A stretch of DNA of 64,000 bases from Bacteroidota bacterium (GTDB lineage: Bacteria > Bacteroidota > Bacteroidia > AKYH767-A > 2013-40CM-41-45), in contig JADKIH010000001.1 of assembly GCA_016721305.1 (NCBI GenBank), positions 192,091-256,090 of the forward strand, written 5' to 3'. Position 1 is the first letter of the stretch. The number at the start of each line of letters is the position of its first letter. The position numbers and the translations under genes are program-made. The notes beneath the pieces are model-generated. The model was not told the origin of the DNA, did not search any database, and was given only the letters and a program-made list of their open reading frames with translations. Shown in pieces: positions 28,201-52,464 of the stretch.

Positions 28201-31200
28201 CGAGAACTTCTGTATGGCAACCAGTTACTACTGAATAAGTACCTGAAGCTGTGTAAGTAGTTCCGTTTACTGACCAAGTGTAAGTATCACAAGCTGAAAT
28301 TGTAGTTGTGTTAGATGTGCTTGGAGTGATTGTCAATACGAGTACTTCTGTGTGGCAACCTACTACATTAGTATAAGTACCAGATGCAGTGTATGTGTTA
28401 CCATCTACTGACCAAGTATAAGAATCACAAGCTGAAATTGTAGTTGTGTTTGATGTGCTTGGAGTGATTGTTAACACGAGAACTTCTGTATGACAACCAG
28501 TTACTACTGAATAAGTACCTGAAGCTGTGTAAGTAGTTCCGTTTACTGACCAAGTGTAAGTATCACAAGCTGAAGCTGTAGTTGTGTTAGATGTGCTTGG
28601 AGTGATTGTCAACACGAGGATCTCAGTGTGGCAACCTACTGTGTTTGTATAAGTACCAGACGCAGTGTAAGTGTTACCGTCTACTGACCAAGTGTAAGTA
28701 TCACAAGCTGAAATTGTAGTTGTGTTAGATGTGCTTGGAGTGATTGTCAACACGAGGATCTCTGTGTGGCAACCTACTGTATTAGTATAAGTACCAGAAG
28801 CTGTGTAGTCTGTACCGTTTACTGACCAAACATAATGATCACAAGCTGAAATTGTAGTTGTGTTAGATGTACTTGGAGTGATTGTCAACGCGAGGATCTC
28901 AGTGTGGCAACCAGTTACGAATGTATAAGTACCACTTGAAGTGTAAGTGTTACCGTCTACTGACCAAGTGTAAGTATCACAAGCTGAAACTGTAGTTGTG
29001 TTAGATGTGCTTGGAGTGATTGTCAACACGAGGATCTCAGTGTGGCAACCTACTGTGTTAGTATAAGTACCAGAAGCTGTATAGTCTGTACCGTTTACTG
29101 ACCAAACATAATGATCACAAGCTGAAATCGAAGTTGAGTTCGATGTACTTGGAGTGATTGTCAACACGAGAACTTCTGTATGGCAACCAGTTACTACTGA
29201 ATAAGTACCTGAAGCTGTGTAAGTAGTTCCGTTTACTGACCAAGTGTAAGTATCACAAGCTGAAGCTGTAGTTGTGTTAGATGTACTTGGAGTGATTGTC
29301 AACACGAGAACTTCTGTGTGGCAACCTACTGTGCTAGTATAAGTACCTGAAGCAGTGTAAGTGTTACCGTCTACTGACCAAGTGTAAGTATCACAAGCTG
29401 AAATTGTAGTTGTGTTAGATGTACTTGGAGTGATTGTCAACACGAGAACTTCTGTGTGGCAACCTACTGTGTTAGTATAAGTACCGCTTGCAGTGTAAGT
29501 TGTACCGTTTACTGACCAAGTGTAAGTATCACAAGCTGAAATTGTAGATGTGTTAGATGTACTTGGAGTGATTGTCAACGCGAGGATCTCAGTGTGGCAA
29601 CCAGTTACGAATGTATAAGTACCACTTGAAGTGTAAGTGTTACCGTCTACTGACCAAGTGTAAGTATCACAAGCTGAAATTGTAGTTGTGTTAGATGTAC
29701 TTGGAGTGATTGTCAACACGAGAACTTCTGTGTGGCAACCTACTGTGTTAGTATAAGTACCAGAAGCTGTATAGTCTGTACCGTTTACTGACCAAACATA
29801 ATGATCACAAGCTGAAATTGTAGTTGTGTTCGATGTGCTTGGAGTGATTGTCAACACGAGGATCTCAGTGTGGCAACCTACTGTGTTAGTATAAGTACCA
29901 GAAGCTGTATAGTCTGTACCGTTTACTGACCAAACATAATGATCACAAGCTGAAATTGTAGTTGTGTTCGATGTGCTTGGAGTAATTGTCAGATTGAGGA
30001 TTTCTGTATGGCAACCTGAAACTGAAGTATGAGTTCCGCTTGAAGTGTAAGTGAAACCATCTACCGGCCATGTGTAAGAATCACAAGCTGAAATTGTAGT
30101 TGTGTTTGATGTACTTGGAGTGATTGTCAACACGAGAACGTCTGTGTGGCAACCAACAACATTAGTATATGTTCCGCTGGCAGTGTAATCAGTGCCATTT
30201 ACAGACCATACATAATGATCACAAGCTGAAATTGTAGTTGTTGTTGAAGAACTTGTAGTGATAACAAGGTTCAGGGTATGAACTACAGAACAACCATTTG
30301 CGCCATCATTTGTAGTCGCAGTGTATGTTCCTGACTCAGTATACGTTTGTCCGTTTACAGGCCAGAAATAAGAATCACAAGAAGAGATAGACTCAGTAGT
30401 TGTTAATTGAGCAGGCTGACCAATTGTTACCGTAGCTGTAGATGTACAACCAGGAGTGTTTGGATCTGTAGCAGTAACTGTGTAAGTACCTGCAGCAAGA
30501 CCTGAAGCAGTAGCACCTACTTGTTGTGGAATTGTACTCCATGTATAAGTAGCAGCACCTACAGAACCTGTAGAAGAAGCTGTAGCAGTACCATTAGAAC
30601 CACCGAAGCAAGTTGGTTGAGTTGAACCTTCAATTGAAGCGCTGATTGCACAAGAACTTGGAATAGACATTGCGCAAGGAGTAGATAATGTCTTAGTTAA
30701 TGCTGTAGCTAAAGATACTGTAGTAGCACAGTTTAAGAACATGTTAGCAGAAGCAGTTGTAGCCCAAGTTAAACCAACGTTGGCTCCCGGGTTAAATCCC
30801 TGGCCAAGAGTGTTTGAAATTGTTAAACTGAAACGACCAATTTTCTTAGGAACACCAATCGGAAGTGATGGTGCAACACCATTACAAGAACCGTTACCGT
30901 TGTTCGCATAAGCAGTAGTACCAGAACCTACCGACATCTGACGAACAGCAGCCGTATAAGTAGCAGTAACTGTAGATGTTGGAGGCCACATCAAAGGAGC
31001 ATCCGAAAGTCCATCCTGCACATAAGCAAAGGTGAATGTGTTCACACCTGTTGTTGGAACCAAACCCGTAGCATGGGTCAAACGAATAGTGGCAGCCTGA
31101 AGATTCAGAGCGCCCGGCCCGGTATTAGTTACCATCACATCAAATGAAATTACATTCGATGTAGCCGTACAGTTTGCAGTAGACAGTGTGTAACCCTGCC

Positions 31201-31282
31201 CACTCGACGTCGCCAGTCCCGTCAGAAAGACGAGAAGAGTCATAAGAACTCCTCTGGTGAATAAGTGCGTACTTGTTTTCAT
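25284..31282 (-). CDS. Giant (~2000 aa) T9SS-secreted repeat adhesin, 3 ORF pieces (26918..31282, 25582..27024, 25284..25619), with ~21 tandem 46-aa repeats, SprB-like Cys-containing repeats and a canonical T9SS type-A C-terminal sorting domain
   Basis: Signal peptide [28 protein letters not shown]. Repeat unit [46 protein letters not shown]. C-terminal [13 protein letters not shown]...[13 protein letters not shown]...[25 protein letters not shown] is the classic Por secretion CTD. Confidence 0.7.
27470..30390. repeat. ~21 near-identical 138-bp tandem repeats inside the adhesin coding sequence
   Basis: The DNA reads agtgattgtcaacacgag(g/a)a(t/c)ctc(a/t)gtgtggcaacc... with a 138-bp period; the protein period is 46 aa. 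Confidence 0.85.
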
Positions 31283-31325: not shown

Positions 31326-31368
31326 AAAAGTCGGCAGCAGGTTGCAGCCTGCTACCGACTTTATTTTT
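31326..31368. terminator. Bidirectional rho-independent terminator after the giant adhesin gene
   Basis: agtcggcagcagg-ttgcagc-cctgctaccgact hairpin (one mismatch) flanked by T-rich runs on both strands, between the stop at 31371 and the next gene start at 31282. Confidence 0.6.
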
Positions 31369-31370: not shown

Positions 31371-34300
31371 TTATGGATGGATTGAGAAGATACCAGCAGA
31401 GTTGTTGATATCGAAGTACGGATAATCATTCGGATCTACGAAACCATCACCATTCAAGTCAGTTGTAATGTAATCACAACACAAACCTGCTGAGTTATCG
31501 ATGTCATAGTACGGATAATCATTCGGATCTACGAATTCATCCTGGTTGATATCACCTGAGAAGATTGAATAGATACCTTCTAATAAATCATCAGCTGCCA
31601 TTCCACTCATAGACTGGATAGGATCAGTAGAGAAGTCGTAGCTAGCCGGTGTAGCTGTTGCTAATGCAACCGGAGCTGCAGACCATGTAAGAACTGAGTT
31701 ACGGTGACGGATAGCAATGTAATAGTTACCATCTAAGCCACTCACAACAGCTGAACATGTTCCATCTGTCATCAATACTGCCTTTGTAGAGCCGGCAAGT
31801 AAGAATGTATTCTCATCATAAATCTCAACAGTGATTGTGTCTGTCTCAAGACCTGTAGCACCTGCTACTGCCTGATTCGCCAATACCGGTTGCATTGTTC
31901 CTGCACCGATGTAGTAACCCTGGAGGTAAGCAACAAGGTCAATTTGCATTGGATTGCCACAAGGATCACCTGTAGAAGTTACATCAACACTGTTCGATAC
32001 TATTGAACAACCAAATGCATTCGTAACTGTGAAGCTGAATGAATATGGGTTAGCGAAGATGAATGAGAAGTTGCTGTTATCAACAAACAACGAGTTACCT
32101 GTTGAACCATCGAAGTCGTTCCATGCGATAGAAGCACCTGCGCCTGCACCTGTTGTGTCGGCATTCAGAGTTACGCTACCTGTAGCACACAGGATCGGAT
32201 TTCCACTTACAGAGATAACTGCAGTTGTAGGAGACGGATTAACCGTGATATCAGTCGACAATACTTGTGTACAACCGTTAGCATCAGTTACAGTTACTGT
32301 GTAAGTTCCAGCAGTTCCTGTAGTGATACACTCTGTAGTTTCAGATGAAGACCAAGAGAACGTGCTGTATGTAGCTGCAGGTAATACGCAGATACTAACT
32401 GTTCCTGGAGCACAAACTGAAGCCGCAGAACCGGTAGACAATGAAGCCGGAATCACAGTGAATACGTTGATAGTCTGAGAAGCTGTTGCTGTACAAGTAC
32501 CGTTAGCAACTGTCAGAGTATAAGTAGTTGTTGCAGTAGGGTTCACAGAAAGAACTTGTGAAGTACCAACCACGCTAACACCGTCTGACCAGCTGTAGCT
32601 AGTGTAACCTGCACCACCATCCAATGTTACGTTGCTACCACCACAAATTGTAGTTGCGCTAGGAACGATTGTAGGAGCTGTAAGTGGAGTGTAATCGATT
32701 GTTACACTTGCGCTGCTTGAACAACCTGTAGAGCTTGACGCCACAACTGTGTAAGTTGTAGTTGCTGTAGGACATGCATGTAATGTAGGACCTGTTACAG
32801 AACCCGGATTCCAAGTATAAGTGATTGGACTTCCAGTGATACCGTAAAGTTGCATGTTCGGACGCTGACTAAATGTATTGATTGTAGATGTCGGTGCGAA
32901 TGTCACAACACTACAGTTACCATCAGCATGTGTTTCTGCAGTTGAAACGAATGCAGTAGTTGATTGATTTACTACATCGTTATCTGCGAAGTCTGTACAT
33001 GCCGTTGTAGGACATGTTGCACAATTCACCAATGATACGTCAACGACTACGTTGCTTGTACCATTCCAGCTGAATGGAGTCGTGAAGTTGAATGTATTCC
33101 AACCTGTAGCACTGAAGTACGTTGCAGGATCAGTATACACTTGAGTCATACCTGAACTTACAAACGCTGCAGACATTGAAGTAGCTGAAGTTGCTGCCAT
33201 TGAAACCTGGAAGTTCATGACTCCATTAAGTGCTCCAAGAGAAACAACATCAAATCCTAATTTAGAGATTGGACCTGCTACCAAACCTTGAGCAGAAAGC
33301 TCAGATGCAAGGATCAGATACTGCTCGTGGTGAGCTGTCCAGAACTGACCCAATGGAGCCGGCTGACTAGACGTAGTATTCTGAACTGTACCTGTACCGA
33401 TAGTTACCGTTGCAGGAGCAGAAACTGTTGCACCAACAACTGACAGATCTACACACTCACCTACGTTACATACTGAAGTAGCAGTTGCACTGATTACCGG
33501 AGTTGCAGGAGTTTCATTTACATTGATTGTAATTGAAGCAACTTCCTGGCAAGTAGCAAATGTACCTGTTGTGTTATCTATTGCACCAACGAAGTAAGTC
33601 GTAGTTGCACTTGGAGTTACTGTGTAAGCAGCACCTGTGAAGATCACAGTTACGCCATCAGTTGACCAACCGTAAGTGTAGTTAGGATCGTTAGAACTTG
33701 TAGCAGTAAGCGTAAGAGTAGTACCTGAACAAATTGTGTTTGAAGGCGCACTGTTAGTAATTGTAACAGTTGGAGCCGGATTCACAGTTGCAGTTACGAA
33801 TTGACGACCTGCAGGATCTAAACATGTACCGTCGTAAGCAATTACCCAGAATGTAGTAGTTGATGTTACGTTCGTAGTATATGTTGCTGTGTTAGTTGCA
33901 AGAGGTGTACCACCTGAAGAGTTGGCATACCAGTCGAAGCTACCTACACCTGTTACGCTCATTGTTACTGAACCAAGACCACAACGTGTAGCGTTAGTTA
34001 CAGAAGTAATTGAAGGGCTTAATACTGTCACCAGAGCCGAAGCTGAAGTATCAGCAGAACCACTACATGTTACATAAGCACGGTAGTAAGTAGTTGCAGA
34101 GATTGAACCTGTAGTATACAGAGCAGAGTTAGCTCCTGAAATGTCAGTCCAAGTATCAATCAAACCTGAAGCAGATTCTTGCCATTGGTATGATGCACCT
34201 GAAGTTGCATTTGTTACAGTCAACGTTACCGGACCTGATCCACAGATTGTAGATGGAGATGCAGAAACCGTTGGTGTAGCAGGAGTTGCAATTACATCTA

Positions 34301-37300
34301 CAGTTACAGATGCAGTTGATGTACATCCTGTAGATGCATCAGTTGCTGTTACTGTATAAGTAAATGTGCCTGTAGAAGATGGAGTCACAACTTGTGTTCC
34401 ACCAGATAATGAACCCGGATTCCATACGAATGTAACACCAGGATTTGGAGTGATCAATGTGATTGCATAGTCTTCAGTTGAACCTGAACCCATTGCAAGA
34501 CAAGCGTCACCTGAACCGTTAGTATTACCATTCAGACGTGAACGGATACGCATTCCTGTTAAACCCGGAGAAGCAGTAACCGGTACGTTAATAGTAACTG
34601 TACCAGAAGCAGCTGAAGTCCAAGGTTGAACCCACTCAGAAGCGTCATAAACGCCATCACGGTTGTAGTCAATCCATACTGAGATGATTGATGTACCACC
34701 TGTAGCAAGTGTCATTGTATAAGAAGCGCCTGTAGCAAGTGTAGTTGTCTCTGTTCCAACCGGTGCATTCACATGATAGAATGGAGATACACAAGCAGGA
34801 GGAGTACTGTTCAATGTATTGATCTGAACAGAAGTTACACAAGAAGAACCGGCATTAGTTACTGTACAGTAACCTGAAGGAAGAGTATTCGGTCCGATCA
34901 GATCAGATGTAGCAAATAATGTAGAGCTTGATCCTAAACAGATAGTTGAAGGAGTAGCTGATGCGGTATTGATTACCGGAGGAGCTGTTGTCGTTACAAC
35001 TACTGAAGATGTAGTTACACAATTGTCATCAGCATCAGTTGCTGTTACAGTATACGTGAATGTACCGCCTGCAGTTGGAGTAACTGTTACAGGAGAGCCT
35101 GACATTGAAGTCGGGATACCTGAACCTGATACAGGGAAGGCTGTCCAAACATATGTATACGTATTCGTTGAACCTGTCTGTGTTGCAGTCAAGTCGAATG
35201 AACTGTTACCACAAGCTGAAGAAACGCTTGATGAAGCTGTTACTGCATCCGGACTACTTACTGTCTGAACTACCGGTGTACGGAGTGACTCGCAAGTACC
35301 ATCGAATTCTGCTACATAGAATGTAGTTGTAGAACTGATTGTGTAAGCTGTAAGAGTTGCACCTGTTTCACCTGAAATTGGAGTACCACCTGTTGGAGTC
35401 AAGTACCAGCTGAATAAACCACCTGAACCTGAAACTGAACAATTTGGAATACCAACACCACACTGATTGTTATCAGTAGCAGTTGGAGCAGAAGGAAGTG
35501 GATTCACTGTTACATCAACTGTTGCAGTTGAAGTACAACCTGAAGCCGGATCTGTTGCAGTTACAGTGTATGTAGTGTTAGATGTCGGATTCACAGTAAC
35601 AACGTTTCCGCTGCTGAGTGATCCCGGACCCCACTGCCATGCATATGAACCTGCACCTGAAGTAGTAGCATAATTTATGCGAACGTTATCAATTGCCCAT
35701 CCTGCGTATTCAACGCTTGTATCAGATGTGAAACGGAAACGTACACGGAATGTAGTTGCTGAACTTACTGAAGCAAGACTGATAGTCTCATGTTTCCAGA
35801 AACTAGTTGCAGGACCTGCAGGGTAAGTTGAAGCTGAACCGGTAAATTGAGCTGACCAGTCTGCATAGCTACTAGTTTCCCAACCAATCGCACCTGCAGC
35901 TACCATATCCGGAGACAATGTACCGGCACCTAAGTAAGCAGCAAGAGGGAAGTTCAACCAAGTTGCACCACCGTTGAGTGAGTACTCGATGCGACCATAG
36001 TCGAATCCGTTCTCAGAAGCACAGATATGCCAGAATTCAAATGTCGGACTAGATAATGTACTTAAGTTAACGTCAGTTGTCATTGACAAGCTTCCGTCAG
36101 CTGAAGGTACATAAGTATTCTTAGCCGATGCAGCACCTTCCTGGAAGTATGTTCCATTCAATGCCCAAGTCACACCTGTTCCGCTTGTAGCGAATGATGC
36201 AGGGAATGTCTCGAAGCCTTCGTGGAATGATGAACCTGCAGGTAAGCCTGTAAGTGCTGTAAGCACTACATCTGAACCTGAACATACTGTACTAGGACTA
36301 GCTGTAGCTGAAGTGATGTTTGGTAATCCTGTTACAGTTACCACTACCGAAGAGGCTGTTACACAACCGGCAGTTGCATCAGTGGCAGTTACAGTGTAAG
36401 TATAAGTACCTTCTGCAGTCGGAGTCACAGATACAGGTGAACCTGTTTCTGATCCTGAAATACCGCTGCCTGTTGAAGGACTAGCAGAGTATGTTAATAC
36501 ATAAGTGTTTGTAGAACCTGTTTGTGTTGCAGTCAATGTGATTGCCGAACCTAAACATGTTGGTGAAGAAGCTGCCAGAGATATTGCATCCGGATTAGTT
36601 ACTTCTGCAATTACTTCTGCACGTGGACCTTCGCATGTACCATCGAATTCTGATACATAGAATGTTGTTGTAGAAGATACTGTGTAAGTAACCAATGAAG
36701 TTCCTGACTCACCTGCGATTGGAGAACCGCCTGTAGAAACAGTATACCAACGCATGATACCACCTGAACCTACTGCAGATGCCATTGGCACACCAACACC
36801 ACACTGTGTAGAGTTAGTAGCTGTAGGAGCTACAGGAACAGGGTTAACTGTTACGTCAACTGTTGCAGTTGATGTACAACCTGATGCAGGATCTGTTGCA
36901 GTTACTGTGTAAGTATTAACACCAATAGATGAAGGTGTTGCAGTTACACTGTTTCCTGACAATGAACCAGGATTCCATGTCCATGTATAAGTACCAGGAC
37001 CTTGACCGCCTGTCATCGCACCAAACGTCATAATCGGACGTGAAGTTGATGTTGAGCTACCAGTTGCATCTGTGCAACCTGTTGTAGTACCTGATCTATG
37101 AGTGTTTGCATTGAAACCAACGGTTTCAGTAACTATTGTTGCAGTTCCTAAAACGCTGTTTGTCTGACAAACATTGATCAACAAGTTAGATGTACCATTC
37201 CAGAAGAACGGAGTTGAGAACGTGTGTACGTTCAATCCTGCAGATACAGGAGTGAAGCTCGCAAGAGTGTACACAGATGTCAATGACGTTGTCTCGAATG

Positions 37301-40300
37301 TAGTCGACAATGCGGTAGCACTTGTATTAGCCATACCGATTTCGAAGTTAATCATCGTACCTGTAGAACCGGCTGTTGTAGTGAAGGCAAGACTAGTGAT
37401 ATTACCAGGTGCCATTCCCGCAGCAGTTAATTCGCTGGCAAGAACTAAGAGTTGAGATCTGATTTGGTTACCACCACCGTTACCAGAACGATATGGGTTA
37501 CCTTCATTTCCACCGATTGAACCTGTACCTGCACCACCTGTACTTACTGTACCCGGAGCGAAGTCGTTAGTCAATCCCTGTTAATGTTGTAGACTCACCT
37601 AAACAAACTGTGCTAGGAGATGCTGTAGCAGAACCGATAAACGGAGCTGCACCAACAACAACAGTCACAGAAGAAGACGCATTACAGAATCCGTCAGTTA
37701 CATTGAGCGTATAAGTATACGTTCCTGCTGCTGTCGGAGTAATTGTAAGAGCTGTGCTAGGCACATACGAGCCTGTCAATGGAGTAGTAATTCCACTTCC
37801 TGTTGAAGGCGAAGCAGATAATGTATAATCTATCCAAGGATAAGGGAGTGTACCGTCTGTCATAGTAAGAGTAACAGTACCACCTTGACATGCCGGACTT
37901 GTAGCTGAAAGAACCACATTACCTGCATCAATTACATCCTGGAATACGGCAACACGTGCACCTTCGCAAGTACCATCGAATTCAGATACATAGAATGTAG
38001 TCGGAACTGAGATTGAGTAAGCTGTAAGTACTGTGCCCGACTCACCTGCAATCGCTGTACCACCTGTTGGAACAGTGTACCAACGCATTAAACCACCTGA
38101 ACCTACTACTGTACAAGTTGGAACACCAGGTCCGCACTGAGCATTGTCAGTTGCAGTTGGAGTTGCCGGTAATGGATTAACCGTTACAGTTACGTTCGCG
38201 AAGTTTGAACAAACTCCGTCGTTCGCTTCTACTGTATAAGTAGTAGTTGTTGTAGGAGTTACAGTTACAGTATTTCCTGACAATGAACCAGGATTCCAAG
38301 TCCATGTAAGTGAACCGGCACCTGTTGTAAGTGTCTGAGCACCGAAACGCATGTTTGGACGAACTGAGTTAGATGTCGTAGCTGCTGTAACTAATTGAGG
38401 GTTACAACCTGCTCCATCTGAATAGTAGTAACTGTGTGAAGTAAATGCAGTTGTTGTATTGTTTACAACGGCATTCTGAGTGTATGATACACCGCTACCT
38501 GTAGTATTACAAGTTGTACTTGCAGGACCAACACAAGAAGGACAATCACTGAATGTGATATCAATCAGGACATTCGAAGTACCATTCCAGAAGAATGGAG
38601 TCGAGAATGAGTGACTTGTCCAACCTGCTGTAGGGTTGAAGTTACCTACTGTGTAAACCTGAGTAGCACCTGTTTCGAATGTTAATGAAGCAGTAGTACT
38701 TGCTGTGTTCTTCATTGAAATCGTGAAGTTTCCATAACCAAGTGCATTTGTATTGCTCACAACGTCGAAACCTAATGATGTGATGTTACCTGCATACATT
38801 CCTGAAGCTGAAAGCTCAGAAGCAAGAACAATCATTTGGTGACGGTTACCTGTGTAGTAGTTACCATAAGGAGGCATGTTTGTAGTAGTAGAAGTACCGT
38901 TTTGGAGTACGCCTGTTCCTACTGTAACATCACCTGCGGCAATAATCGGTGTTTGTGCTGTTAACACTACTGATTCACCTGCACAAATTGTAGATGGAAC
39001 TGCAGTGATAGAGCTGATAGTCGGAGGTGTAGTTACTGTTACCACAACCTGAGCTGTAGTAGCACAACCTGAACCTGCGTCATTTGCATTTACCGTATAA
39101 GTGTAAACACCACCGGCAGTTGCCTGAATAGTCTGAGAAGCACCAGTCAACGGAGTAGTAATACCGCTATTTGCTGAACTTCCAGTCCATGAATAAGCGT
39201 AGTTTGGATCATTTGTACTTGTTGCATCCAATGTAAAGTTAATGAACGGACAAGTTGTTGATACAGTTGATGTAGCTGTAACAGCAATTGGAGATGTTAC
39301 CTCTGCTATTACTTCTGTACGTAAGCTTTCACATGAACCATCGAATTCAGAAACATAGAATGTTGTAGTCGATGAAATTGTGTAAGCTGTTAAATGATCT
39401 TGCGACTCACCTGAAAGTGGGCTACCACCTGTTGATGCAAGGTACCAACGGAATAAACCGCCTGAACCTGTTACTGCACAACCCGGGATGGCTGTACCAC
39501 ACTGAGTTGAGTTAACTGCAGTTGGAGCAGCAGGAAGTGGATTTGTATTCACTACTACCGAAGCTGTAATTGAACAACCATTTGCGTCTGTAGCGATCGC
39601 AGTGTAAGTTGTTGTTGCAGTTGGCGTTACTGAAACCGATGCACCTGTACCTACTGTAGAAGTACCATCTGACCAAGAGAATGTTACTGTTGGAGCTGTG
39701 TTAGCTGCAAAAGTGAATCTTGGACGACTAGTACCTGTGCCTGTAGCTGTAGTAGAAGCTAGCATTGTAGCAGGAGTTTCAGAATCTGCCTGACGGTAAG
39801 CTGAGCATGTGAAACCAGGAGCATCAACTTTCATTGTTGAACCTGTAGCAGTTGTTGCAGCCGGTACACTAGACCAAGAAACAGATACAAGGATATTTGA
39901 TACTCCGTCCCATGTCCAGCTTGAGCTTGAACCGGCACCGGTACCGAATGTGAATGTATTTACAGTGTTTGCTACCGGTGTAATTGCGTCGTTCACACCT
40001 GTACCGAGGTAAACCTGAGTAAGACCAGTAGTTACAAAGGCAGTTGTCATTGCTGTCAACGATGTTGAAGCAAGGCTAACTGAGAAACCATTGTATGTGG
40101 TACCGGATGTTGTCGGTTCGTAAGAGATCGCTGTGATAGGACCTGCACTTACACCAATAGCAGCCAATTCCGATGCCTTGATAATGTATTGTGTTTTAGC
40201 ACCACCCCAACCTCCTGGTAAGAAGGAAGCAGCTGTAGATGCGGATGTGGATGCACCTGCACCAAGAACTGCATTGCCTGGTTTAGAAGCAGCAGAAGAT

Positions 40301-43300
40301 AAAGTAACTGACTGACCTAAACAAACCGGATTTGGAGTTGCACTTGCCGTAGCAGTTGCGCCTAACATTGGCTCATCTGCATAAGATGTTCCTGTGATAG
40401 ATGGAGTATAAACTCCGTCTGTAGCAACAGCAGAATAAGTAACTGTAGCGTTAACCGGTGTAGTAGCTGCAGGAATTGTTCCTGTCCAGCTAGTAGGACC
40501 ACCTGTCATTGCAACAGTTGTTGGTGTACCACCATTATATGCATAAGTAAGGTTAACACCTGTAACCGGAAGAGCTCCGTCTACAGTTGTAACTGTAATT
40601 GTACGAGCTGTAGCTGTACATGCTATACCTGATGGACTCGCAGAAATTGCAGTAATCGCAGGTTGAACCTGTGTACCTGCAAATTCGTCAGCACCGATAT
40701 CCGGAGTTGTTCCGCGTGTATCGCCATCGAAGTCAGTTGTAACACCACTGATAGTAGCAGCACCTGATTCAGCAGCTGTAGAAGCACCTGCAGTGAAATG
40801 CAAGAATGTTGAAGCTGAACCTGTAGTACTTGCGAATGTTGCATTCTCAAATACTGACGCTTGCTCACGTGGAGCTAAACCAGCCAACACTTTGTAAGCT
40901 GCTAAAGTAGCCTGAGCTGCTGTTCCGTCGTAATAAACCGGAGTCGTAGCTGTACCACCTGTGAAATACAAGTTGTTGTTAGATGTAGAAGCAAATGCTG
41001 TAAATGTTGCAGCAGCTCTTCTGAAACCAACAGCCAATGATGTACCGCCTGCGTTCAAGCCGTTATAGATGATGTTGTTACGTAAGTTAACAGAACCAGG
41101 AGTTACTGTAGCGCTTACACCTGAACTACCGCCTGAAGTTGTTCCAGACAAACGGATAGTGTTGAAGTAAACATTTACTGTTGAACCACCTGTTAAGCTA
41201 ATACCCATGATAGCATTTGTACCGGTTGCACCAACTGAGTTGAGGTTACCGATGATGTTATTACGGAGAGTAACAGTTGTACCTGAAGTAACAGACATAC
41301 CTGTGATTGTAGAAGCACTACCACCTGCCGTAAGGTCATAAACCTTGTTGCTAGAATAAGTTGCAGTCAAAGATGCAGAAGAAGTAATACCTGTAATTGT
41401 ACCACTGCTGGCTGCTTGCAATGTTGCTAAGCCTGCAACTGTGTTACCACTTACTGTACGTAATGTTGTAGCAAGTGTATTGTTCACAATACCGCGAATA
41501 GAATGAGTTGAAGTTGAAGCACCACCTACTGTTAAGTTAGTAATTGTGTTGTTTGTAACTGTCTCATCTGTTGAAGAACCTGCGTTAGAGAAACCGGTGA
41601 TTGTACCGACACCAGCAGACAACGCTGTAATTGTGTTATTGTTAATTGTATTACCTGTGAATGTGTAAGCTGTTCCGGAAGCTCCAGAAACAACAGCACA
41701 GTTCATTGTACAAGCAAGAGCACCACCTGCGATAACGTTACCTGTGATGGTGTTGTTATCGTAGTGATTCACACTAGCTGGAGTAGCAACAGAGCTAGAA
41801 CCGGCAGTGTATGTTGTCATAGTACCGGTTGAAGTCTTAGTGTTGTTAGTAATAGTGTTATTGCTAACGGTAATTGTACCAGGTGTACCTGTATTGGCAA
41901 TACCTGTGAATGTTCCTGTTCCTGATAATGAGTTAGTAGAAACAGTATTGAATGTCATTGTAACATTCGCATTCGTACCTGTTAAACCTGAAGTGATACC
42001 TGTGAATGCAGCAGTTGTTGCAGCAGACAATGTACAGTTCTGAACTGTGTTATTGCTGATGCTTGCTGTATTACCTGTACCTGAAGAACCCCAAGTGATA
42101 CCGATTACGGCACCGGTTGTAACTGCCGGAGATACAGAAACAGTATTACCTGTGATTGAACCGTGTGGACCGCTACCACCGTTGATACAAGTTAATGCAC
42201 CTGTGTGAGCAGCTGAAACACTGTTGATCTGGTTATTGGAAACTGTGATAGCACGGTTATCAGCGAATGATACAACAGTACAAGCAACAGTACTACCACC
42301 GAAGTTAGTGAAAGTGTTACCTGATACTGTATTCAATGTATCGTTTGTGCTAGATGTACCTGAAGCTGCCGTAGCTGCATTGAAGATAACACCACCGTAA
42401 GTATTCGTGATTGTGTTATTTGTGATGCTTACTTTGTTACGGAAGGCCTGGATACCTGCTGCATCACCTGCTACTCCACCATATGTAAATGTTGTAGAAG
42501 CAAGATCTGTAGTGTTTGCAACACGTACACCGATTGCAGCTGTATTAGCTTTATTTAATGTGATTACACCATTTGTGTAAACTACATCGTTAGATCCATT
42601 TACGTTATCGCATTTGTAAACACCAAGACCTGCTTCCATTTCTACTGTAGCAGATGCTGTATTACCGTCGAACAGGTCGATACCGTCGAAAGTAATGTTA
42701 TCCATACCAACAACGTCAACGACGTCATCCGTAAACGTACTTCCCGCACCCGTACCTACACCTGCACTGATCTTCGCATTAGCACCGGCACCTGCTTCCA
42801 CAAACGTTACTGTTTGTGTAGGACCTGATTGTAAACCTGAAGCGAGAGCACACATCTTGAACACGATACCTGCTGAAGGAGCTGTTTCAGTGTAACCTGC
42901 TGCAACGTTGAATACAACGTTACCTGCAACACCTTTAGTATTCAAGTCGTTTGCTGCAGCTGCGAAGCTTGCATAGTTTGAACAACCTGAACCACCAATA
43001 GTATATGTTCCTGAAAGCGGACCACTTGGAGAGATCACAACCGGAGCTGAAGTAGCTGAACATCCTACTGAACTTGTTACAGTTACAGTGTATGAACCTG
43101 TTGTTGAAGTAGAGTAAGTAGCTGCATTCGGACCTACTGAAGTAGTACCATTCAATGTATAAGCGTAAGTAGTAATTGTCTGTGGACTTGCAGAAGCCGT
43201 TGTTGTCAACGTTGCACTGCTTCCACCTAACAATGTTGTACAGTCAGCAGCAAGTGATACTGTTGGAACTGTACCTACTGTTAATGTAAGTGAAGAAACC

Positions 43301-46300
43301 GCTGCAGCACAAGAACCTGCTCCATCCGGATCGTCTGTAGTTAAAGTAATCGTAACTGAACCTGCTGCGATATCGGCAACAGATGGAGTGTACGTTGTAG
43401 CTGTACCGAATACATTCGATGGATTGAATGTACCTGTACCGCTTGATGACCATGTAGCTGTTGTAGCTGTACCACCGATAGAACCGCCTAATGTATAGTC
43501 ACCACCGCAAATTGTTGCGTTAGCACCTGCAGAAGCAGTTGCCGGAGTTGTACAAGGGCTGATAATAAATGATGCTGCAATTGTATGATCTGCTGCGATA
43601 GCTGTAAATGTGTATGAACCAACAGCACCTACAGAAACTCCGTCAACCAGAACGTCATCAACTTGATAACCTGCGTCAGGAGTGATAGTAAATGAAGGTG
43701 ATGTACCACAATCAACAACTACAGCACCTGACGGAGCAATTGTTCCGTTTGATCCTGCAGAAGCAGTAACAGTGTATTGAATCATAGTTACAACAAATGG
43801 AGCTGAAGTAACAGCACAACCATCAGTAATTACGTCTACTGTATAAGAACCACCTGCGGTTGCTGTATAAGTAGCATTTGTTTCACCGCTGATAGGGTTA
43901 CCGCTTTCGTTCCACTGATATGTTGTAGTTGCACCTGAAGCAGTTGCAGTTAATACTGAAGGACTACCAGTACAAATTGTTGAACTTGTTCCTGAAACGC
44001 TTACTGATGCATTATTAACAGTAATAGTTGCTGTTCCTGAATTTGAACAAGAACCGATAGTAGCAGTTGCAGTATAAGTAGTTGTTGAAGTCGGAGTTAC
44101 CGATACACTTGCAGTTATGTCTGAAGTGTTTGGTGACCATGACCAAGTTGGATTTGTAACTGAAGAATAAGTAAAGTATGTATTCAGACGGTTAGCGCTA
44201 GTTGTAGCTGTTGGATTCATTACAGTAGCAAGATCCGAAGTAGCGCTTGTAGTAGATGTTGTAGCATATACTGCAGTGTTACCGGAAGTAGCTGTGTAAT
44301 ATGTCTGAGCATTGTTGATATTGTCAACACCATCCTGACGAAGATCGACTAAGAGGTTTGAAGTACCATTCCAAGCATAAGGAGTTGAGAAAGTGATCAC
44401 GTTGTTTCCTACTGCATGACTGTATGTTGCAGGACCGTAAACCAATGACAAACCTGATGTTGTGAATGTAGTCAATGTTGATGTACCAACTGTTCCCATG
44501 TAAACACGGAAGTTAGTTACATTCGTATTATCACCTAATGTTGTGATATCGAATCCGATTGAAGTGATGTTGCCGGCAAAAATACCTGCAGCATTCAATT
44601 CAGCCGGTGTAAACACCATCTGGCACCAGTACTGAGCCCAACGGTTACAGAAAGCTGTAGGTTGAGAAGTAGAACCGGACAACGAAGTTGCTGTTCCTAC
44701 AACACCTGCTCCTGATGAACCGATTGTACCACCCGAAGCAACTAATGTCTCAGCCGATGTTCCGCAATGTAATGCAGAAGCCGGAGTGATAGTTACTGCT
44801 GAAGGAGTAGCATTTACGGTTACAGTTGCTGTTGCTGTTGTGTTACAACCAGAACCATCTAACGCACTTACTGTGTAAGTAGTAGTAGATGTTGGGCTAA
44901 CACTATAAGAAGCAGCAGTTGGACCACCTGTCCAAGTGTATGTATAGTTCGGATCGTTTGAACTTGTTGCAGTCAAAGTTGTGCTCTGACCGTTACAAAT
45001 TGTTGTCGTTCCGCCGATAGATACTGATGGAGGTGCGTTTACTGTAACGATTACCTCAGTACGCGGTGTACTTTCACATGTTCCATCGAATTCTGTTACA
45101 TAGAATGTAGTTGTAGCAGAGATAGAAGTTGTGTAAGTAGCCGATACTCCCCGATTGAATTGGTGAGCCTCCTGTAGAAGCTGCATACCAACGGAAATTC
45201 GGTGTTCCTGCACCTGTTGTAGAAGTAACAGAAGCTGTTGGAACGTGAGGACCGCACTGTGTTGAGTTAGAAGCTGTCGGAGCTGATGGAAGCGCTACTA
45301 CAGACACAGAAGCTGTGCTTGCAGAAAGTGTACAACCATTTACATCCGTTGCAGTAACCGTATAAATAGTAGTTCCTGTTGGAGTTACTGTTAATGGGCT
45401 ACCTGTTCCAACTGAACTTGTTCCGTATGACCATGCAAATGTTAAGCCTGAAGCAGCTTTAACACCTGTCCATGTGAATTTCGGACGGTTTGAGTTCGGA
45501 GTTGAAGATGAACCACCTGATGGAGTTCCAGTTGTTCCGCAGATAGTCGCAGATGTCTGACTATCTTGCTGCCAGCCGAAGTTACATACATATGAAGCAA
45601 CATCATATTTGATAGTGCTTGATGATGATGTAGTAAGGCCTGTGCTCCAGCAGAAGCTAACAACGATATTTGATGTTCCGTTCCAGTTGAATGGAGTTGA
45701 GAACGTAAGTGTATTTACACCTACTGTCGGAGTATAGCTTGCACTTGTATAAACGTCAGTCAAACCTGAGAAGAAGCTGTTAGTCATTACAGTGTTAGCT
45801 GTAGAACCGATGCTTAATGCTAAATCAGGGTAAGCCTGACCTGAAGTTGTTGCTTCAAATGATAAAGCTGTGATGTTACCGGCAGACAAACCTGCTGCAG
45901 TAAGATCAGAAGCTCTGATTAGGTATTGAGTTTTTGCACCACCCCATGATCCAGGGAACATTGTTGTTCCGAGTGATGAAGATGTGCTTGCGCCTGCTCC
46001 AAGAGCAACCGTACCATTTTGAGTAGCAGCACCTGTTAAAGTAGTTGTGCTACCTGTACAAACTGTGAGCGGAGAAGCGGAAGCCGAAGCAGAGTAACCT
46101 GTTAAAGGCTCGTCCTGATAAGAAGTTCCTGTCAACGAAGCATTCAGTGGAACGCTGTTAGTTGCAGTTACGCTCCATGTTACAACAGCATTCACAGGTG
46201 TACCGACAGGTATTGTTCCAACCCAAGTGTTACCTGATGAATTTGTCATTGTAATAGGAGACTGAGCAGTACCATTAAAACTGTAGTTTAATACTACTCC

Positions 46301-48817
46301 TGTAATTGTTCCTGAAGGAGTTGTTGCATCAACGCTCACGTTACGTGAAGCTGCTGTACAAAGATTTCCTGTCGGAGAAATTGTAAGACTTGCCAATGCC
46401 GGAGCCGGAGAAGTTCCTGCGAACTCATCAGCACCTGCATCAGGTGTAGTTGCATTACGTGTATCACCATCAAAGTCATCAGTAATGCCTGCAACTGCAG
46501 CACCAATACTTTCTGCTAATGTAGAAGCAGCAGGTGCGAAGTGAAGGAATGTAGAAGATGAACCTGTAGTACTTGCGAATGTGCAGTTTTCTGTGTTAGA
46601 AGCCTGATCACGTGTTGCAGCTAATGTTTTGAAGCCTGCAAATGTATAAGCAGTTGTTCCATCATAATATACTGTGCTACCGTAGAACAAGTTGTTGTTA
46701 GAAGTTGCACCGTAAGATGTAAGAGTCGTAGTTGAACGACGGTAACCAACTGCCAAACCGGCACCGGCTACGCTTGAATTGTTAACGAAGATGTTATTAC
46801 GTAAAGTTAACGCCGGAGTCGTAGAAGCAGAAATAGCGCTTGATCCGAAGAGAGCGCCTGAACTTGAACCTGCTAAATAAACTGTATTGTAATATGCGTT
46901 AACCGTTGTACCACCGGCTACGTTAAGACCTACTACCGGATTGGCAGCATTGGCAGCAGTAGCACGGAGATCTCCGATTAAGTTATTTTGAACAGTATGC
47001 AAAGTTCCGGAGTTAATAGCGATACCATTAATAGTACCGGAAGCATTGCTCGAAGAAAGATCATAAATCTTATTCTTCGAAATTACACAGCTCGTTGGAG
47101 CTGAAGAAGTGATGCCCTGAACTGCCGAAGCACCCGTACTGGCAAAACCGCCAATCGTGTTTCCTACGACTGTTGAAGAAGTTCCTGAAGAACCAATAGT
47201 GATACCGGTAATGGCTCCGCCGCTGGTAATACCTGTAATAGTATTTCCGCTAACCAAATTGCCATTTCCACCTTGAGCACCACCAAAGCTTGAGTTGATA
47301 CCAACGATTGTGCTTGTACCACCAACGATGCTGCTAAATGTATTATTCGAAATATTGTGGTTAACTGAACCACCATCGGTATTATTATAAATGTAATAGC
47401 CGTTGCACCTGTAACTGTCATGTTAGAGAAGTTGTTACTGCTCCAGCTGAACGTTCCAGTTGTAGAACTACCACCTGTCGTAATACCTGTAACAGTACCA
47501 CCGGCGCCTGTTTTATTGAAAGCAGTCACAATTGAGTTACTGTTGATATTTTGTGTACCACCTGCAACTACTGTTATACTATTACTAATAAAAGTAAAAC
47601 TACCTGTTGTACTTGTAGAAAGGTTGGTAAATGTGTTACTATTAATATTAGTAGTTGTAATTGCTGCTGCAGAACTTATTGCTGTAATACTTCCTGTTGC
47701 AGCTACTGTATGATTTAGAGCCGTAAAGTTGTTATTACTAATAGACAAACTTGAACCACTAATAAATGACGTACCTGACACAATAATACCATTTAATGTA
47801 CCTGTTACTCCTGGAGTCACAGCTATGGCATTATTGTTTATTGTATTAGTCGAAGTCGTAGTTGATGCAACAGTATAAGCAATAAGGTTGATACCAGTTA
47901 CTGTTCCACCCACTGTTATACCGCCATTTGAACTTGTCAGCGTATTATAAGAAACGTTTACATTATAAGAGTTACGGATAAGGATACCATTCATAGTACC
48001 GGAAACGTTTACATCACCTGAGAAGGTTGATGTTGTTCCCCAATTAGTGATCGAGTTCCCCTGACCGGCAGATGTACCACCGATATCGATTCCATTGTTC
48101 TGATCAGCTGCAGCTAGTGGTCCGATTACGCAGATACCAAAGTTAACGTTGCTGATCGTGTTTCCATAAACTTTCAAACCACTGTTACCCCAGCTGTTGT
48201 AGTAGCGGATGCAGAAGTAGTGATCGTAGTAGCCGAGTGCGTCGAGTTACTGTAGATACCCCAGGTGTTCTGGTAAGTTCTGTTTAAGGTAATTGTGTTG
48301 TTTTGAATAGTGTTGTTCTGCGCACCATTCGTTGTACCGTTGTAGAACAAGGCTACACCAAATTCCGTCATGTTGTTCGTGCCGGCAGCTGTAGTTGTGT
48401 TCGTACCCAGCTCACTCATTGCGAAGTCCTGGATGGTAATCCAGTCACCGCCGACGATCTTGAAGATCGCATCGGTTAAACTTCCCGCTGTTTGAGCAGG
48501 GGCGGTATTGTACTAGAGCTACCGCTGATGACGATTGTGTTCGTCGAAGTTCCGGTAGCCGTAATAGAATAACCGCCTGCAGGTGCTGTTTCATTACCCG
48601 TGAGGGTGATGGTAACAGGACCCGTAATCGTCGCAGCGTTCAACGCTGTGATGGCGTCGGCAAGACTAGTGTAGGTTGGAGCAAGTCCGGAACCCGAATT
48701 AGTCGTTACCTGAGCATCGGCTTGTGATGTGAACAAGCACAACGCTACGCAACTCGTCAAGAGCAGCCAGCGTGTAAACGCTGATGCCCTCTTGGTAGGG
48801 TAATTGTTGTTTTCCAT
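31371..48817 (-). CDS. Giant (~5800 aa) surface adhesin in 6 ORF pieces: signal peptide, parallel beta-helix (NNTITN) region, many Ig-like ~90-aa repeat modules, an internal large duplication, and a C-terminal dockerin-like module
   Basis: Probable start MENNNYPTKRASAFTRWLLLTSCVALCLFTSQADA (ATG at 48817..48815). ORF pieces 48476..48949, 48174..48419, 47164..48177, 45074..47257, 37567..45213 and 31371..37574 overlap end to end. Recurrent module P.A..QCG.G.P...V.GSGG..RWY...TGG.PI.GESG..L..Y.ISSTTTFYVSEFDGTCE..R. Beta-helix stretch NNTITGNV...NNTITAL. Confidence 0.6.
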
Positions 48818-49456: not shown

Positions 49457-51094
49457 TCAAAACCCGATGTTGGCGCCAAAACTGATAGTCGTTTTTTTAC
49501 CTCTCATGTATGGCATCGTATATCGATCCAGCGAATTTTCCTCGCCTTCGTTATTGCTGAGATTTAGCCCGGCATAGAGCCAGCAGTCGTTCAGGATTTG
49601 ATAGCTCGCCGAAACTGCTAAGTCACTCGATTGCCACCAGAGGAAATCGATAAATGGATTTCCCATTCCGTTTCCAATCGTATCTCTCGATGAACCGCTG
49701 TAGTTATACTCTTGTCCTTTTTGTGCAAGTGTATATGAGAGCTTCACCGTAGCTTTCGGTATCGGATGTGCCGTTACGCCAACGTAAATTTCCTGGCTGT
49801 TTTCGCCAAGATAATGCCCCATGTTGTAATCGGAACTTGCATAGGTTGCCGATAACAAATAGTGACGGTAGGCACCCGGATTAGTACGGGTGTATTCAGC
49901 AGCCAGACTGATATTCTTGTTTAAGATATTGCTGATCTTCCCTCCTATTTTAGCACTTACGAAGTTGGTCTGCTTCTTCGAATCCATCGCACGGCCCAAG
50001 GCAATCTCGTCGATGAATACGCTTAAATAGAGGTGTGCATTCTTTACATGATAAGAAGAGATGTTGAAGAACATCTGCGAATTTTGTCCGAGGAAGTTAG
50101 ACCCTGCGCTCGATAATGAGTGGTCAACGGTCTTATAAAAGAAGAACGGAACCAGATAAGCCGGGTTCACGGATTGATCACTATATACTATAGAGTTTCC
50201 GATCGACGCACTGAGCTTCGACCATGGTTTAAATGTAAAGAGATTGGCAGCTACGTATTTCGGCTGCATAATGATGCGGACCGATTGTCCGTTATAATAA
50301 GAGCGTGAGCTGTCGAGAACGTTTGAGACCAACCATCCATGAACATAATTGAAGTCGAACCATTTCACCGGATTCATATGAAAACGGATTTGTGTGAACG
50401 ACGGCTGATGTCCCGAGAAGATATTTGCGCCATGTTCGTTGTCACCCCAAACGAAGTGATCTTTCACAATTCCCAAACTTCCCCACGACCAAGAGTAGGT
50501 TAACCCACCACGCACTTCATCATAATCGCCGCCACCTTGCGTGTCGGCTTTGTAGTTAGATGCACTTGCCTGATTCAAATAAGCAGGATCGCTCAAACGA
50601 CGAGTCTCATGATTATCGCGCAGGCTCGCATAGAAGCCAAAGTTCTTACCTATATAAGAGTGAAATTCCGCTCCGTTCCAACGGTGATAAAAACTGCCGG
50701 TGTCGTTAGTATAATATGTAAGTCCTAAAATCGGATTCAGTGTAAATGAGAAAAGTGAATCCTTATAATAGAAGAGATCGGTACGACGTGAAAAATTCTT
50801 ATCCGCTTTCAACTCTTTATTAAAGTCGCGCAAATAAAAATCGAGATCACCCTGTTGACGCTTATTTAATGTAGTTCGTTTCTCATCAGCTTCATGAAGC
50901 TTCTGAGCTACCATCATCCTGCTATAAGGTTTAACCGCAGTGTTCAACTCAATCACCCGCATATTCGCCAGCTCATCCAGAAACTCGTACAGGTCGGTAT
51001 TACTTACATGCACGTAAACCTCCTGCCCTTTTACGGCCGCGGCTACGGTAATTAGTAAGAATGTAAGTAAGACTTTTTGTACTCGTTTGAACAT
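49457..51094 (-). CDS. Outer-membrane beta-barrel protein, possibly Wzi-like capsule assembly protein
   Basis: Signal peptide MFKRVQKVLLTFLLITVAAAVKGQ, 545 aa, C-terminal ...TISFGANIGF (OMP-type terminal Phe). Position at the head of a polysaccharide cluster. The Wzi assignment is by context and general impression only. Confidence 0.35.
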   Translation of the reverse strand: MFKRVQKVLLTFLLITVAAAVKGQEVYVHVSNTDLYEFLDELANMRVIELNTAVKPYSRMMVAQKLHEADEKRTTLNKRQQGDLDFYLRDFNKELKADKNFSRRTDLFYYKDSLFSFTLNPILGLTYYTNDTGSFYHRWNGAEFHSYIGKNFGFYASLRDNHETRRLSDPAYLNQASASNYKADTQGGGDYDEVRGGLTYSWSWGSLGIVKDHFVWGDNEHGANIFSGHQPSFTQIRFHMNPVKWFDFNYVHGWLVSNVLDSSRSYYNGQSVRIIMQPKYVAANLFTFKPWSKLSASIGNSIVYSDQSVNPAYLVPFFFYKTVDHSLSSAGSNFLGQNSQMFFNISSYHVKNAHLYLSVFIDEIALGRAMDSKKQTNFVSAKIGGKISNILNKNISLAAEYTRTNPGAYRHYLLSATYASSDYNMGHYLGENSQEIYVGVTAHPIPKATVKLSYTLAQKGQEYNYSGSSRDTIGNGMGNPFIDFLWWQSSDLAVSASYQILNDCWLYAGLNLSNNEGEENSLDRYTMPYMRGKKTTISFGANIGF

Positions 51095-51106
51095 ACTGGC
51101 AGGCGG

Positions 51107-51246
51107 ATTAGCTGATTAGCTGATTAGCTAATTAGCTAATGTTGGCAATTTGGTTAGTTGGTTACTCTATTATATATGTATACTCTTTTATTACTTGTAT
51201 GCTACACTATTCACTCATCAGCTAATCAGCTAATCAGCTAATCAGC
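51107..51246. repeat. Inverted arrays of GATTAGCT/CAGCTAAT octamer repeats around an AT-rich core
   Basis: gattagctgattagctgattagctaattagctaat (51107..51150) ... cagctaatcagctaatcagctaatcagccaat (51205..51246). Confidence 0.8.
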
Positions 51247-51249
51247 CAA

Positions 51250-52410: not shown

Positions 52411-52464
52411 GTTAAGTTTCGTTCCCGCAACAAACCTAAGACGTTGATGAATCTTTGGTTTGTC

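Follow-up and report, generated by a model that had tools for sequence, protein, structure and literature searches.

A fragmented 17.4-kb reading frame of a Bacteroidota bacterium probably encodes a single giant surface protein with a duplicated beta-helix-plus-stalk unit and an X-dockerin-like C-terminal module

The 64,000-nucleotide stretch analyzed here (positions 192,091 to 256,090 of contig JADKIH010000001.1 from the Bacteroidota bacterium assembly GCA_016721305.1; hereafter the window) contains, at 31371..48817 on its minus strand, six consecutive open reading frames (ORFs) that very probably represent one gene, interrupted by five sequencing errors in the form of single-base homopolymer indels of the assembly. 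Overall, our results suggest that this gene is intact and encodes a secreted surface protein of ~5,820 amino acids (aa), which probably serves as a fibre or adhesin and may be anchored in a dockerin-like manner. The six apparent ORFs may thus be regarded as a single, ordinary gene for a giant surface protein, fragmented by an assembly with many errors. All features of this gene described below lie on the minus strand.

The gene starts with an ATG at 48817 and ends with a stop codon at 31371-31373, and the limits given for it in the original prediction coincide exactly with these two codons. Between them, the six ORFs adjoin or overlap one another in succession (48817-48476, 48419-48174, 48177-47164, 47257-45074, 45213-37567 and 37574-31371). 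Joined by five frame corrections, they yield a protein of 5,817 aa, in line with the single product of ~5,800 aa that had been proposed, and the gene is indeed the largest one in the window. The frame changes were placed by three-frame translation, each within a few bases that hold a short homopolymer, and amount to +1, +1, +1, -1 and -1, in this order. Break 1 (48503..48510, ~48506) lies at CCGCCCC, where the orthologue described below reads ...VITAP..., and break 2 (48184..48191, ~48187) at GGGG, where the homologue consensus is GGNxGLK. Break 3 (47384..47392, ~47387) lies at TTTATAATAAT (TTT/AA), a site covered by the homologue consensus, and break 4 (45146..45153, ~45150) at GGGG, within an Ig_7 module, a site covered by the orthologue alignment. 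Break 5 (37573..37578, ~37575) falls at GGG in the linker between an immunoglobulin (Ig)-like module and the fifth copy of a ~200-aa domain and is spanned by a paralogous high-scoring segment pair (HSP). The stitched protein is rich in Thr (18.8%), Ser (12.4%), Ala (11.1%) and Gly (10.6%), contains only 0.5% Lys and has 103 Cys residues. Repeats within the gene are at most 84% identical at the DNA level, the long ones at most 80%, making a collapse or expansion during assembly unlikely. A terminator-like hairpin with a 15-bp stem including 8 GC pairs (31327..31362) begins 9 nt past the stop codon, and no comparable hairpin exists within the gene. A scan for sigma-70 promoters, which returned fewer sites than shuffled sequence, is uninformative for Bacteroidota.

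Evidence for a single gene comes, first, from its relatives. With the first 1,300 aa of the stitched protein as query, 911 homologues were retrieved, the best of which (P0001) is a single ORF with 67% identity over 100% of the query, encoded on a contig (L001) that also shares the upstream order of a Bac_transf gene, a ~520-aa protein of unknown kind and the giant gene. The pairwise alignment with this orthologue passes breaks 1-4 in one frame, and at breaks 1-3 the expected residues are present in a consensus built from 45 homologues. A collinear HSP spans break 5, aligning aa 3608-3885 with the uninterrupted paralogous segment aa 3153-3422 (44% identity, E 1e-46); an orthologue spanning this site was not found in a metagenome scan, the best match (L082, 66% identity) covering another part of the protein. 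Past every break, reading can be continued in the homologous frame for up to 2,548 codons without meeting an in-frame stop, a pattern unlike real decay. Moreover, there is only one signal peptide and one strong terminator, located past the last piece, across the six pieces. The claim that the fragments form one gene is therefore well supported: the orthologue reads through breaks 1-4, the HSP crosses break 5 and a second signal peptide is missing.

The orthologue itself appears to end at 2,220 aa, at a point where its MEGAHIT contig folds back on itself. A convergent gene terminating it at this position was considered and rejected as a hairpin artefact, in which the 'convergent' ORF opens with the same 40 residues. 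This ORF continues the orthologue into the second beta-helix, with 64% identity to aa 1812-2163 of the window protein. The public contig concerned (ERZ27275115 k141_984) is thus itself a fold-back artefact at 16600-18213 of L001, with a minus-strand 'gene' that continues the plus-strand gene.

Breaks of the same kind are found throughout the window. The dnaE gene is split within its finger domain, in contrast to the uninterrupted ORFs of full-length DnaE relatives, and smc has been broken into three. The gene immediately downstream of the giant gene likewise consists of three fragments, and the small gene at 24640-23401 of two, with the breaks of both located at short runs. Since dnaE, smc and these two neighbours are also frame-broken, the breaks are best explained by indel errors of the assembly rather than by decay. 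Altogether, at least six further breaks are spread over the remaining 46.6 kb of the window, compared to five over the 17.4 kb of the giant gene. It follows that every gene call in the window needs frame correction and that homopolymer polishing is required before gene calling. The affected regions include those of dnaE (1780-4940, minus strand) and smc (18315-21870, plus strand) and probably also an LPG_synthase-like gene (6365-7344, minus strand) and a DUF354 gene (56228-57399, minus strand).

Two considerations weigh against this interpretation. With one break per 3.5 kb, the giant gene slightly exceeds the minimum density verified for the rest of the window, and we infer the error status of the five breaks rather than having seen it in reads. 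The slightly raised density, with five breaks in 17.4 kb, is also what speaks for a decaying pseudogene, whose frameshifts would represent real mutations. We nevertheless regard decay as very unlikely, given that each piece remains open in the homologous frame, that comparable breaks affect dnaE and smc, which are essential, that every break coincides with a short homopolymer and that the orthologue is intact over four of the five sites. The location of the breaks at G/C or A/T runs could alternatively point to programmed frameshifting or to phase variation through slipped-strand mispairing, especially as surface adhesins are typical phase-variable genes. However, the runs comprise only 3-4 bases and fall far short of known contingency tracts, all five sites would have to be switched 'off' at the same time, housekeeping genes show the same lesions and the orthologue lacks a shift at these sites, so that this possibility appears remote. 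Least credible of all is the existence of several adjacent independent genes, such as two paralogous beta-helix genes arranged head to tail. The second beta-helix unit does repeat the whole first unit, and most homologues comprise only 1-2.3 thousand aa with a single unit. Yet, the boundary between the two units lies inside the uninterrupted 2,548-codon ORF, without a stop or a second signal peptide, and the orthologue reads across the same boundary. In addition, the only signal peptide and the only strong terminator frame the set of six pieces as a whole, and the C-terminal sorting or anchoring module is present on no piece but the last. We therefore consider the single-gene reading, with five assembly errors, to be by far the best account of the locus.

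Within the single protein, a large segment has been duplicated. Unit A (aa 49-1654; 43861..48673) comprises a beta-helix, an Ig/CBM56-like module, a ~200-aa domain, an Ig-like, an Ig_7 and another Ig-like module, a second ~200-aa domain and a final Ig-like module. Unit B (aa 1950-3601; 38020..42975) is collinear with it, with 37.9% identity over 1,735 columns (E 5e-179) and a best-kept core of ~850 aa that is 47-50% identical. The original prediction had described a block of ~700 aa occurring twice; the duplication proved real, but its extent is that of a collinear ~1,600-aa unit, of which the block noted earlier represents the conserved core. Because the boundary between the two units lies within one ORF and is read across in the 67%-identical orthologue, the in-frame duplication is both old and real. 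The in-frame duplication of an entire ~1,600-aa beta-helix-plus-stalk unit and its conservation in this orthologue constitute one of two points of biological interest, the other being the X-dockerin-like tail in the position of the type IX secretion tag of its relatives.

The N-terminus has the features of a Sec signal peptide cleaved by signal peptidase I (aa 1-35; 48713..48817), with the sequence MENNNYPTKRASAFTRWLLLTSCVALCLFTSQADA↓QV. It includes an n-region with K/R residues, the h-region WLLLTSCVALCLF and a predicted cleavage site, ADA↓Q, that places a Gln residue at position +1. The same N-terminus is conserved in the orthologue, and the consensus of the homologues at the cleavage site, A↓QVT, matches the window protein. 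A Gln at +1 also fits the Q-rule reported for signal peptidase I cleavage in Bacteroidetes (PMC5837995).

Directly after the signal peptide, the first beta-helix and its C-terminal cap (LRNNI...DFDGDTR...GADEFAG) extend over aa 36-860 (46244..48712). An AlphaFold2 (AF2) model of aa 480-1224, based on a 46-sequence alignment, reached a pLDDT of 88.3, with values above 90 in the beta-helix part, where DSSP assigned at least six coils, each made up of three short strands over ~30 residues. Invariant positions in the homologue alignment of this region are almost all Asn and Gly, i.e. structural. Pfam beta-helix models did not match the window protein itself, even at lenient thresholds; however, a 54%-identical homologue (P0037) matches PF13229 (31.5 bits; cutoff, 25.9) in a stretch that aligns to aa ~538-719. 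Together, the coil pattern and this match support the prediction of a right-handed parallel beta-helix, with the model showing the coils and the handedness being putative. Thus, both the signal peptide and the beta-helix region that had been read from the sequence at the outset are corroborated. The second beta-helix and its cap (aa 1950-2770; 40513..42975) are collinear with the first and read through in the orthologue. A Foldseek search with the 745-aa multi-domain model gave only low-TM matches to tandem Ig domains, thereby neither confirming the beta-helix nor revealing a fold for the ~200-aa domain, and searches of PDB sequences with the beta-helix, the ~200-aa domain and the C-terminal module returned no match.

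The bulk of the protein consists of Ig-like modules, ~26 in total. More than ten copies of a Cys-containing Ig-like module had initially been claimed; the motif quoted for it, QCG...FYVxEFDG[TS]CE, occurs in only five copies. The Ig_7 family (PF19081) matches ten stretches corresponding to nine domains, one of which is split by break 4 (158.5 and 61.7 bits; cutoff, 27.3). The split copy, which carries the motif in the form QCG...FYVxEFDGTCE, lies at 45043..45289, and further strict copies of the motif were counted at 39298-39534, 37933-38169, 36600-36836 and 35259-35495, with divergent Ig_7 copies at 33945-34172 and 33690-33932. Beta-helix 1 is followed by an Ig/CBM56-like module, for which the Pfam match to CBM_56 is weak, a ~200-aa domain, Ig-like modules and a module resembling the InlB B repeat. 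The segment starting with beta-helix 2 continues with four super-repeats of ~450 aa (Ig, Ig_7, Ig and then an accessory domain; DNA period 1,333-1,365 nt), a MAM/reelin-B-like module, a GEVED domain and a final run of Ig-like modules.

Among the accessory modules, the uncurated, beta-rich domain of ~200 aa ('ASEL...NGTSN') is the most frequent. An internal hidden Markov model (HMM) detected six copies with E-values of 1e-61 to 9e-86, the first at 45419..46015 and the other five at 44125-44712, 39661-40278, 38284-38934, 36963-37553 and 32799-33413. Its motif, GGAKTQY..ASEL..G.ITS..F...F.WNGTSN, is also present in most homologues, and the domain has no match in Pfam, NCBIfam or PDB sequences. 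The MAM- or reelin-subrepeat-B-like module (aa ~4200-4390; 35655..36227) was recognized through PF21471 (E 4.5e-8) and PF20773 (E 5.6e-5), and the GEVED domain (aa ~4650-4795; 34440..34877) through PF20009 (E 2e-15). A domain search of the stitched protein accordingly found Ig_7, MAM-like and GEVED modules and no match to an RTX family. Pfam at lenient thresholds gave nothing for the five further copies of the ~200-aa domain, beta-helix 2 or aa 1780-1900. NCBIfam gave nothing relevant over the pieces scanned (aa 213 onward), and a search of PDB sequences with the last 2,067-aa piece returned only a marginal Ig match.

Bacteroidota commonly encode giant surface proteins of modular build that combine beta-helices and Ig-like repeats, and the family of the window protein has hundreds of named members. 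Most of the 911 homologues are annotated as 'beta strand repeat-containing' or 'T9SS type A sorting domain-containing' proteins, T9SS denoting the type IX secretion system. Those of Flavobacterium (e.g. P0012 of F. pedocola), Fluviicola (e.g. P0030 of Fluviicola chungangensis), Ferruginibacter (e.g. P0005 of Ferruginibacter sp.) and Chitinophagaceae are collinear with the first ~1,300 aa (42-52% identity) and share the order of signal peptide, beta-helix with a DFDGDxR...GADEF cap, Ig/CBM-like module, ~200-aa 'ASEL' domain, Ig and Ig_7. The homologues listed have 0.9-2.3 thousand aa, one beta-helix unit and mostly a Por_Secre_tail (PF18962) end, whereas the window protein has two units and 5.8 thousand aa, lacks a T9SS tail and ends in an X-dockerin-like module. 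It is hence set apart from its known relatives by the in-frame duplication of the head-plus-stalk unit and by the replacement of the T9SS tag with this module. The searches made did not return a studied function for these homologues.

Two giant surface filaments of Bacteroidota, the grappling-hook protein GhpA of Aureispira (5,898 aa; PDB 9flp) and the SprB protein of Flavobacterium johnsoniae (6,497 aa), resemble the window protein in outline, having a Sec signal, a distal adhesin-like head, a long Ig-like stalk and a C-terminal anchoring domain. GhpA combines a Sec signal and an adhesin-like head with a stalk of Ig-like domains linked by inter-domain disulfides and a C-terminal T9SS domain (bioRxiv 10.1101/2024.01.29.577165). 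The profile of our family matches the Ig-like stalk repeats of GhpA (E 5e-26), but the likeness is limited to these repeats, and the heads differ. Furthermore, both GhpA and SprB possess a T9SS sorting domain, and anchor genes resembling PorP/PorE lie downstream of GhpA; neither feature was found for the window protein. The RTX or type I-secreted adhesins LapA and MpIBP likewise combine a giant Ig-like stalk with C-terminal Ca2+-binding motifs and a module for surface retention. In contrast to these type I secretion substrates, which lack a Sec signal, the window protein possesses one, is devoid of GGxGxD nonapeptide repeats and has Ca2+-binding loops of the EF-hand/dockerin type.

On the basis of the Sec signal, the beta-helix heads, the Ig-like stalk, the binding-type modules, the absence of a catalytic family match and the analogy to GhpA and SprB, we consider it likely that the protein acts as an adhesin or surface fibre comparable to these two. 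Like fibrillar adhesins, it has tandem stalk domains, in this case ~26 Ig-like modules, and a secretion signal; candidates for its adhesive domains include the MAM-like and GEVED modules, the beta-helices and the 'ASEL' domains. It has to be kept in mind that this role rests on architecture and analogy and that the beta-helices could be enzymatic. Pectate lyases and many glycanases adopt the right-handed beta-helix fold, and the weak CBM_56 match, the dockerin-like tail, which is reminiscent of cellulosomes, and the location of the gene next to an exopolysaccharide (EPS)/capsule cluster would all be compatible with a surface polysaccharide-active enzyme or enzyme scaffold, with the beta-helices as glycanase or lyase domains and the accessory modules as carbohydrate-binding modules. 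On the other hand, no catalytic family was matched in Pfam or NCBIfam, lenient thresholds included, the invariant columns of the beta-helix have the structural Asn/Gly character described above and the Ig-like stalk dominates the protein. An enzymatic role thus seems unlikely compared to that of a fibre or adhesin.

The C-terminal 199 aa form a distinct module, for which AF2 provided a model with a pLDDT of 93.8 (63-sequence alignment). It consists of a beta-sandwich ('X-like') half (aa 5619-5754; 31563..31970) and a dockerin-like half (31374..31562), in which two helices (H153-161 and H184-191) are each preceded by a DxNxDxxxDxxD loop. These 12-residue loops, DINQDEFVDPND and DLNGDGFVDPND, are predicted to bind Ca2+ and lie 31 residues apart, as also reflected by a DNA repeat (D8) with 93-nt spacing; their Asp/Asn columns are invariant in the family alignment, and the protein ends in ...FSIHP. 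Foldseek returned X-module-dockerin (XDoc) structures as the five best PDB matches (4wi0_B, 4u3s_B, 3kcp_A, 4fl4_L and 5g5d_B; probability 1.00, E 9e-6 to 6e-4). By sequence, the window copy falls below the cutoff of Pfam Dockerin_1 (PF00404) with 15.4 versus 22.9 bits, 37 of the 63 family members match this model at E<=0.01 (best, 4e-7), and the sandwich half is not covered by any Pfam or NCBIfam model.

The type II XDoc dyads of C. thermocellum CipA and A. cellulolyticus ScaA (3kcp, 4fl4, 5g5d, 4wi0, 4u3s) have the same arrangement of a beta-sandwich followed by a dockerin with two Ca2+-binding loops and, like the module described here, form the very C-terminus of a huge extracellular protein of modular build. 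Within the cellulosome, CipA-type scaffoldins are attached through this dyad to type II cohesins of anchoring proteins bound to the cell wall. The window protein differs from these scaffoldins in that its host is Gram-negative, its passenger is not a cohesin scaffold and the dockerin half, as judged from the 37 matching family members, resembles by sequence Dockerin_1, a type I family. Moreover, compared to the type II XDoc dyad, the module constitutes a large family of its own with a conserved ...xP end.

By contrast with most homologues, which end in Por_Secre_tail, a T9SS type A sorting domain, the giant protein lacks a T9SS tail. Neither Pfam nor NCBIfam detected a tail of type A (PF18962/TIGR04183), B (CHU_C/TIGR04131) or C, even at E<=5, and an HMM built from the tails of the homologues did not match the giant protein either, although it recognized the tail of a neighbouring gene as a positive control (E 4e-14). 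Since this neighbour carries a PF18962 tail (E 3e-13), the organism does use T9SS type A tags, but not on the giant protein.

The C-terminal module is widespread. A word-indexed search found it in ~150 relatives. All ten relatives that were retrieved end in ...HP or ...TP, among them stand-alone proteins of ~260 aa with their own signal peptide. Searching 1.84 billion representatives of 50%-identity clusters with a profile gave 16,025 matches at E<=1e-3, including 3,474 at E<=1e-30; the match ends at the last residue in ~144 of the best 150, and the carrier proteins range from 180 to 3,417 aa. Carriers in species-representative genomes belong to Ferruginibacter, Chitinophagaceae, Flavobacteriales, Crocinitomicaceae, Bacteroidales and, in many cases, Ignavibacteria. 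In 80 genomic loci, the module forms the end of 112 of 134 ORFs, with a nearly universal terminal Pro. When the window is included, 34 of 81 sources (loci L002-L081 and the window) contain at least two module genes, and up to seven are arranged in tandem (L049). The family is thus large and lacks a Pfam or NCBIfam model, and a description of it was not found in the literature searched for dockerin-type tails linked to T9SS or in Ignavibacteria. Passengers that are homologous to each other use the module interchangeably with T9SS C-terminal domains (CTDs). In light of these findings, it is conceivable, albeit doubtful, that the 199-aa dyad represents a so far undescribed C-terminal device for anchoring or sorting, widespread in Bacteroidota and Ignavibacteria. 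If so, it would be part of a cohesin-dockerin-like surface-display system, or a new secretion tag, in Gram-negative bacteria and offer Bacteroidota and Ignavibacteria a second way to display large surface proteins. It could then also serve as an annotation marker for thousands of 'hypothetical' proteins.

A second carrier is found in the window itself. The small gene at 23401-24640 (minus strand) encodes a protein of ~410 aa with a signal peptide, an N-terminal domain of unassigned kind and an X-dockerin-like tail (...FAIHP) and has a frame break near 23760.

The sequence and models suggest that the protein is exported by the Sec system, cut by signal peptidase I before Gln36 and composed of two tandem units of ~1,600-1,900 aa, each opening with a right-handed parallel beta-helix. 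The long chain of Ig-like modules, interspersed with six ~200-aa beta domains and one MAM-like and one GEVED module, would form the stalk, and the beta-helices and accessory modules would provide the binding surfaces. The X-dockerin-like dyad would then dock the protein in a Ca2+-dependent manner to a partner in the envelope or at the surface or, alternatively or additionally, act as a recognition tag for export. By analogy with the cellulosomal dyads, retention of the protein on the cell through predicted Ca2+-dependent docking of its tail may be tentatively proposed, at somewhat less than even confidence.

Several observations temper this proposal. The likeness to XDoc structures is moderate, with 13-16% identity and TM scores of 0.31-0.56 (0.54-0.56 on the 156-residue XDoc chains), and cohesins were found neither among the window ORFs scanned nor as conserved neighbours in the 80 loci. 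In addition, neither docking nor a sorting tag accounts for passage through the outer membrane by a protein that lacks a T9SS tail. The N-terminal domains of the small module-bearing protein and of the second giant gene of the window were considered as cohesin-like partners but rejected, as they showed no Pfam match at E<=10 and no mutual similarity.

As the main alternative to docking, the module could be a signal of a new class for secretion or sorting, by the type IX or another system, that is read by the export machinery instead of a cohesin-type receptor. Such a role would agree with the replacement of Por_Secre_tail on homologous passengers, the nearly constant position at the extreme C-terminus of very diverse proteins, the near-invariant terminal Pro, the presence of several copies per genome, often in tandem gene arrays, and the type A T9SS substrate encoded next door. 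The range of the family points in the same direction, as Bacteroidota and Ignavibacteria both possess Por-type sorting domains, with Por-type sorting having been described for M. roseus (PMC3534657). However, the 50 Foldseek matches listed do not include a known T9SS CTD, and Pfam and NCBIfam gave no CTD match. The conserved neighbours other than module-bearing genes in the 80 loci were only regulators and other repeat proteins, without any PorP/SprF-like gene, and the canonical dockerin signature of the Ca2+-binding loops suggests protein-protein docking. We therefore judge a role as sorting signal to be rather improbable.

The host of the giant gene, a member of the Bacteroidia, probably belongs to the Chitinophagales. 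Its DnaE protein shares 85% identity with the one from an uncultured 'Bacteroidia bacterium', followed by those of Chitinophagales, Chitinophagaceae and Saprospiraceae. The gene is flanked by a Wzi-like outer-membrane protein (OMP) and another surface protein, without an adjacent PorP/SprF-like gene, and the order of Bac_transf, Wzi-like and giant gene is conserved in the orthologous contig L001. The Wzi-like OMP (545 aa, weak match) belongs to an upstream polysaccharide/capsule cluster (49457-63968), which also encodes Bac_transf, a polysaccharide deacetylase, a hexapeptide transferase, a DUF354 protein, dehydrogenases, GT1/GT2 glycosyltransferases and a Wzy_C-like protein. On the downstream side, a second giant surface gene (25284-31282, minus strand) in three frame-broken pieces encodes a signal peptide, ~25 near-identical tandem repeats of ~50 aa that contain Cys (ISACD.Y.W.V.G..YT.SGTY), five PKD_6 domains and a Por_Secre_tail; the number of its tandem repeats could have been mis-counted by the assembler. 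Another part of the window (8945-17862, minus strand) contains, next to each other, genes for a 1,243-aa protein with a CarboxypepD_reg-Plug-TonB-barrel architecture (14131-17862), a 1,353-aa protein without Pfam match (10047-14108) and a weakly PorV-like OMP (8945-10015), which may form an outer-membrane uptake or secretion-associated set.

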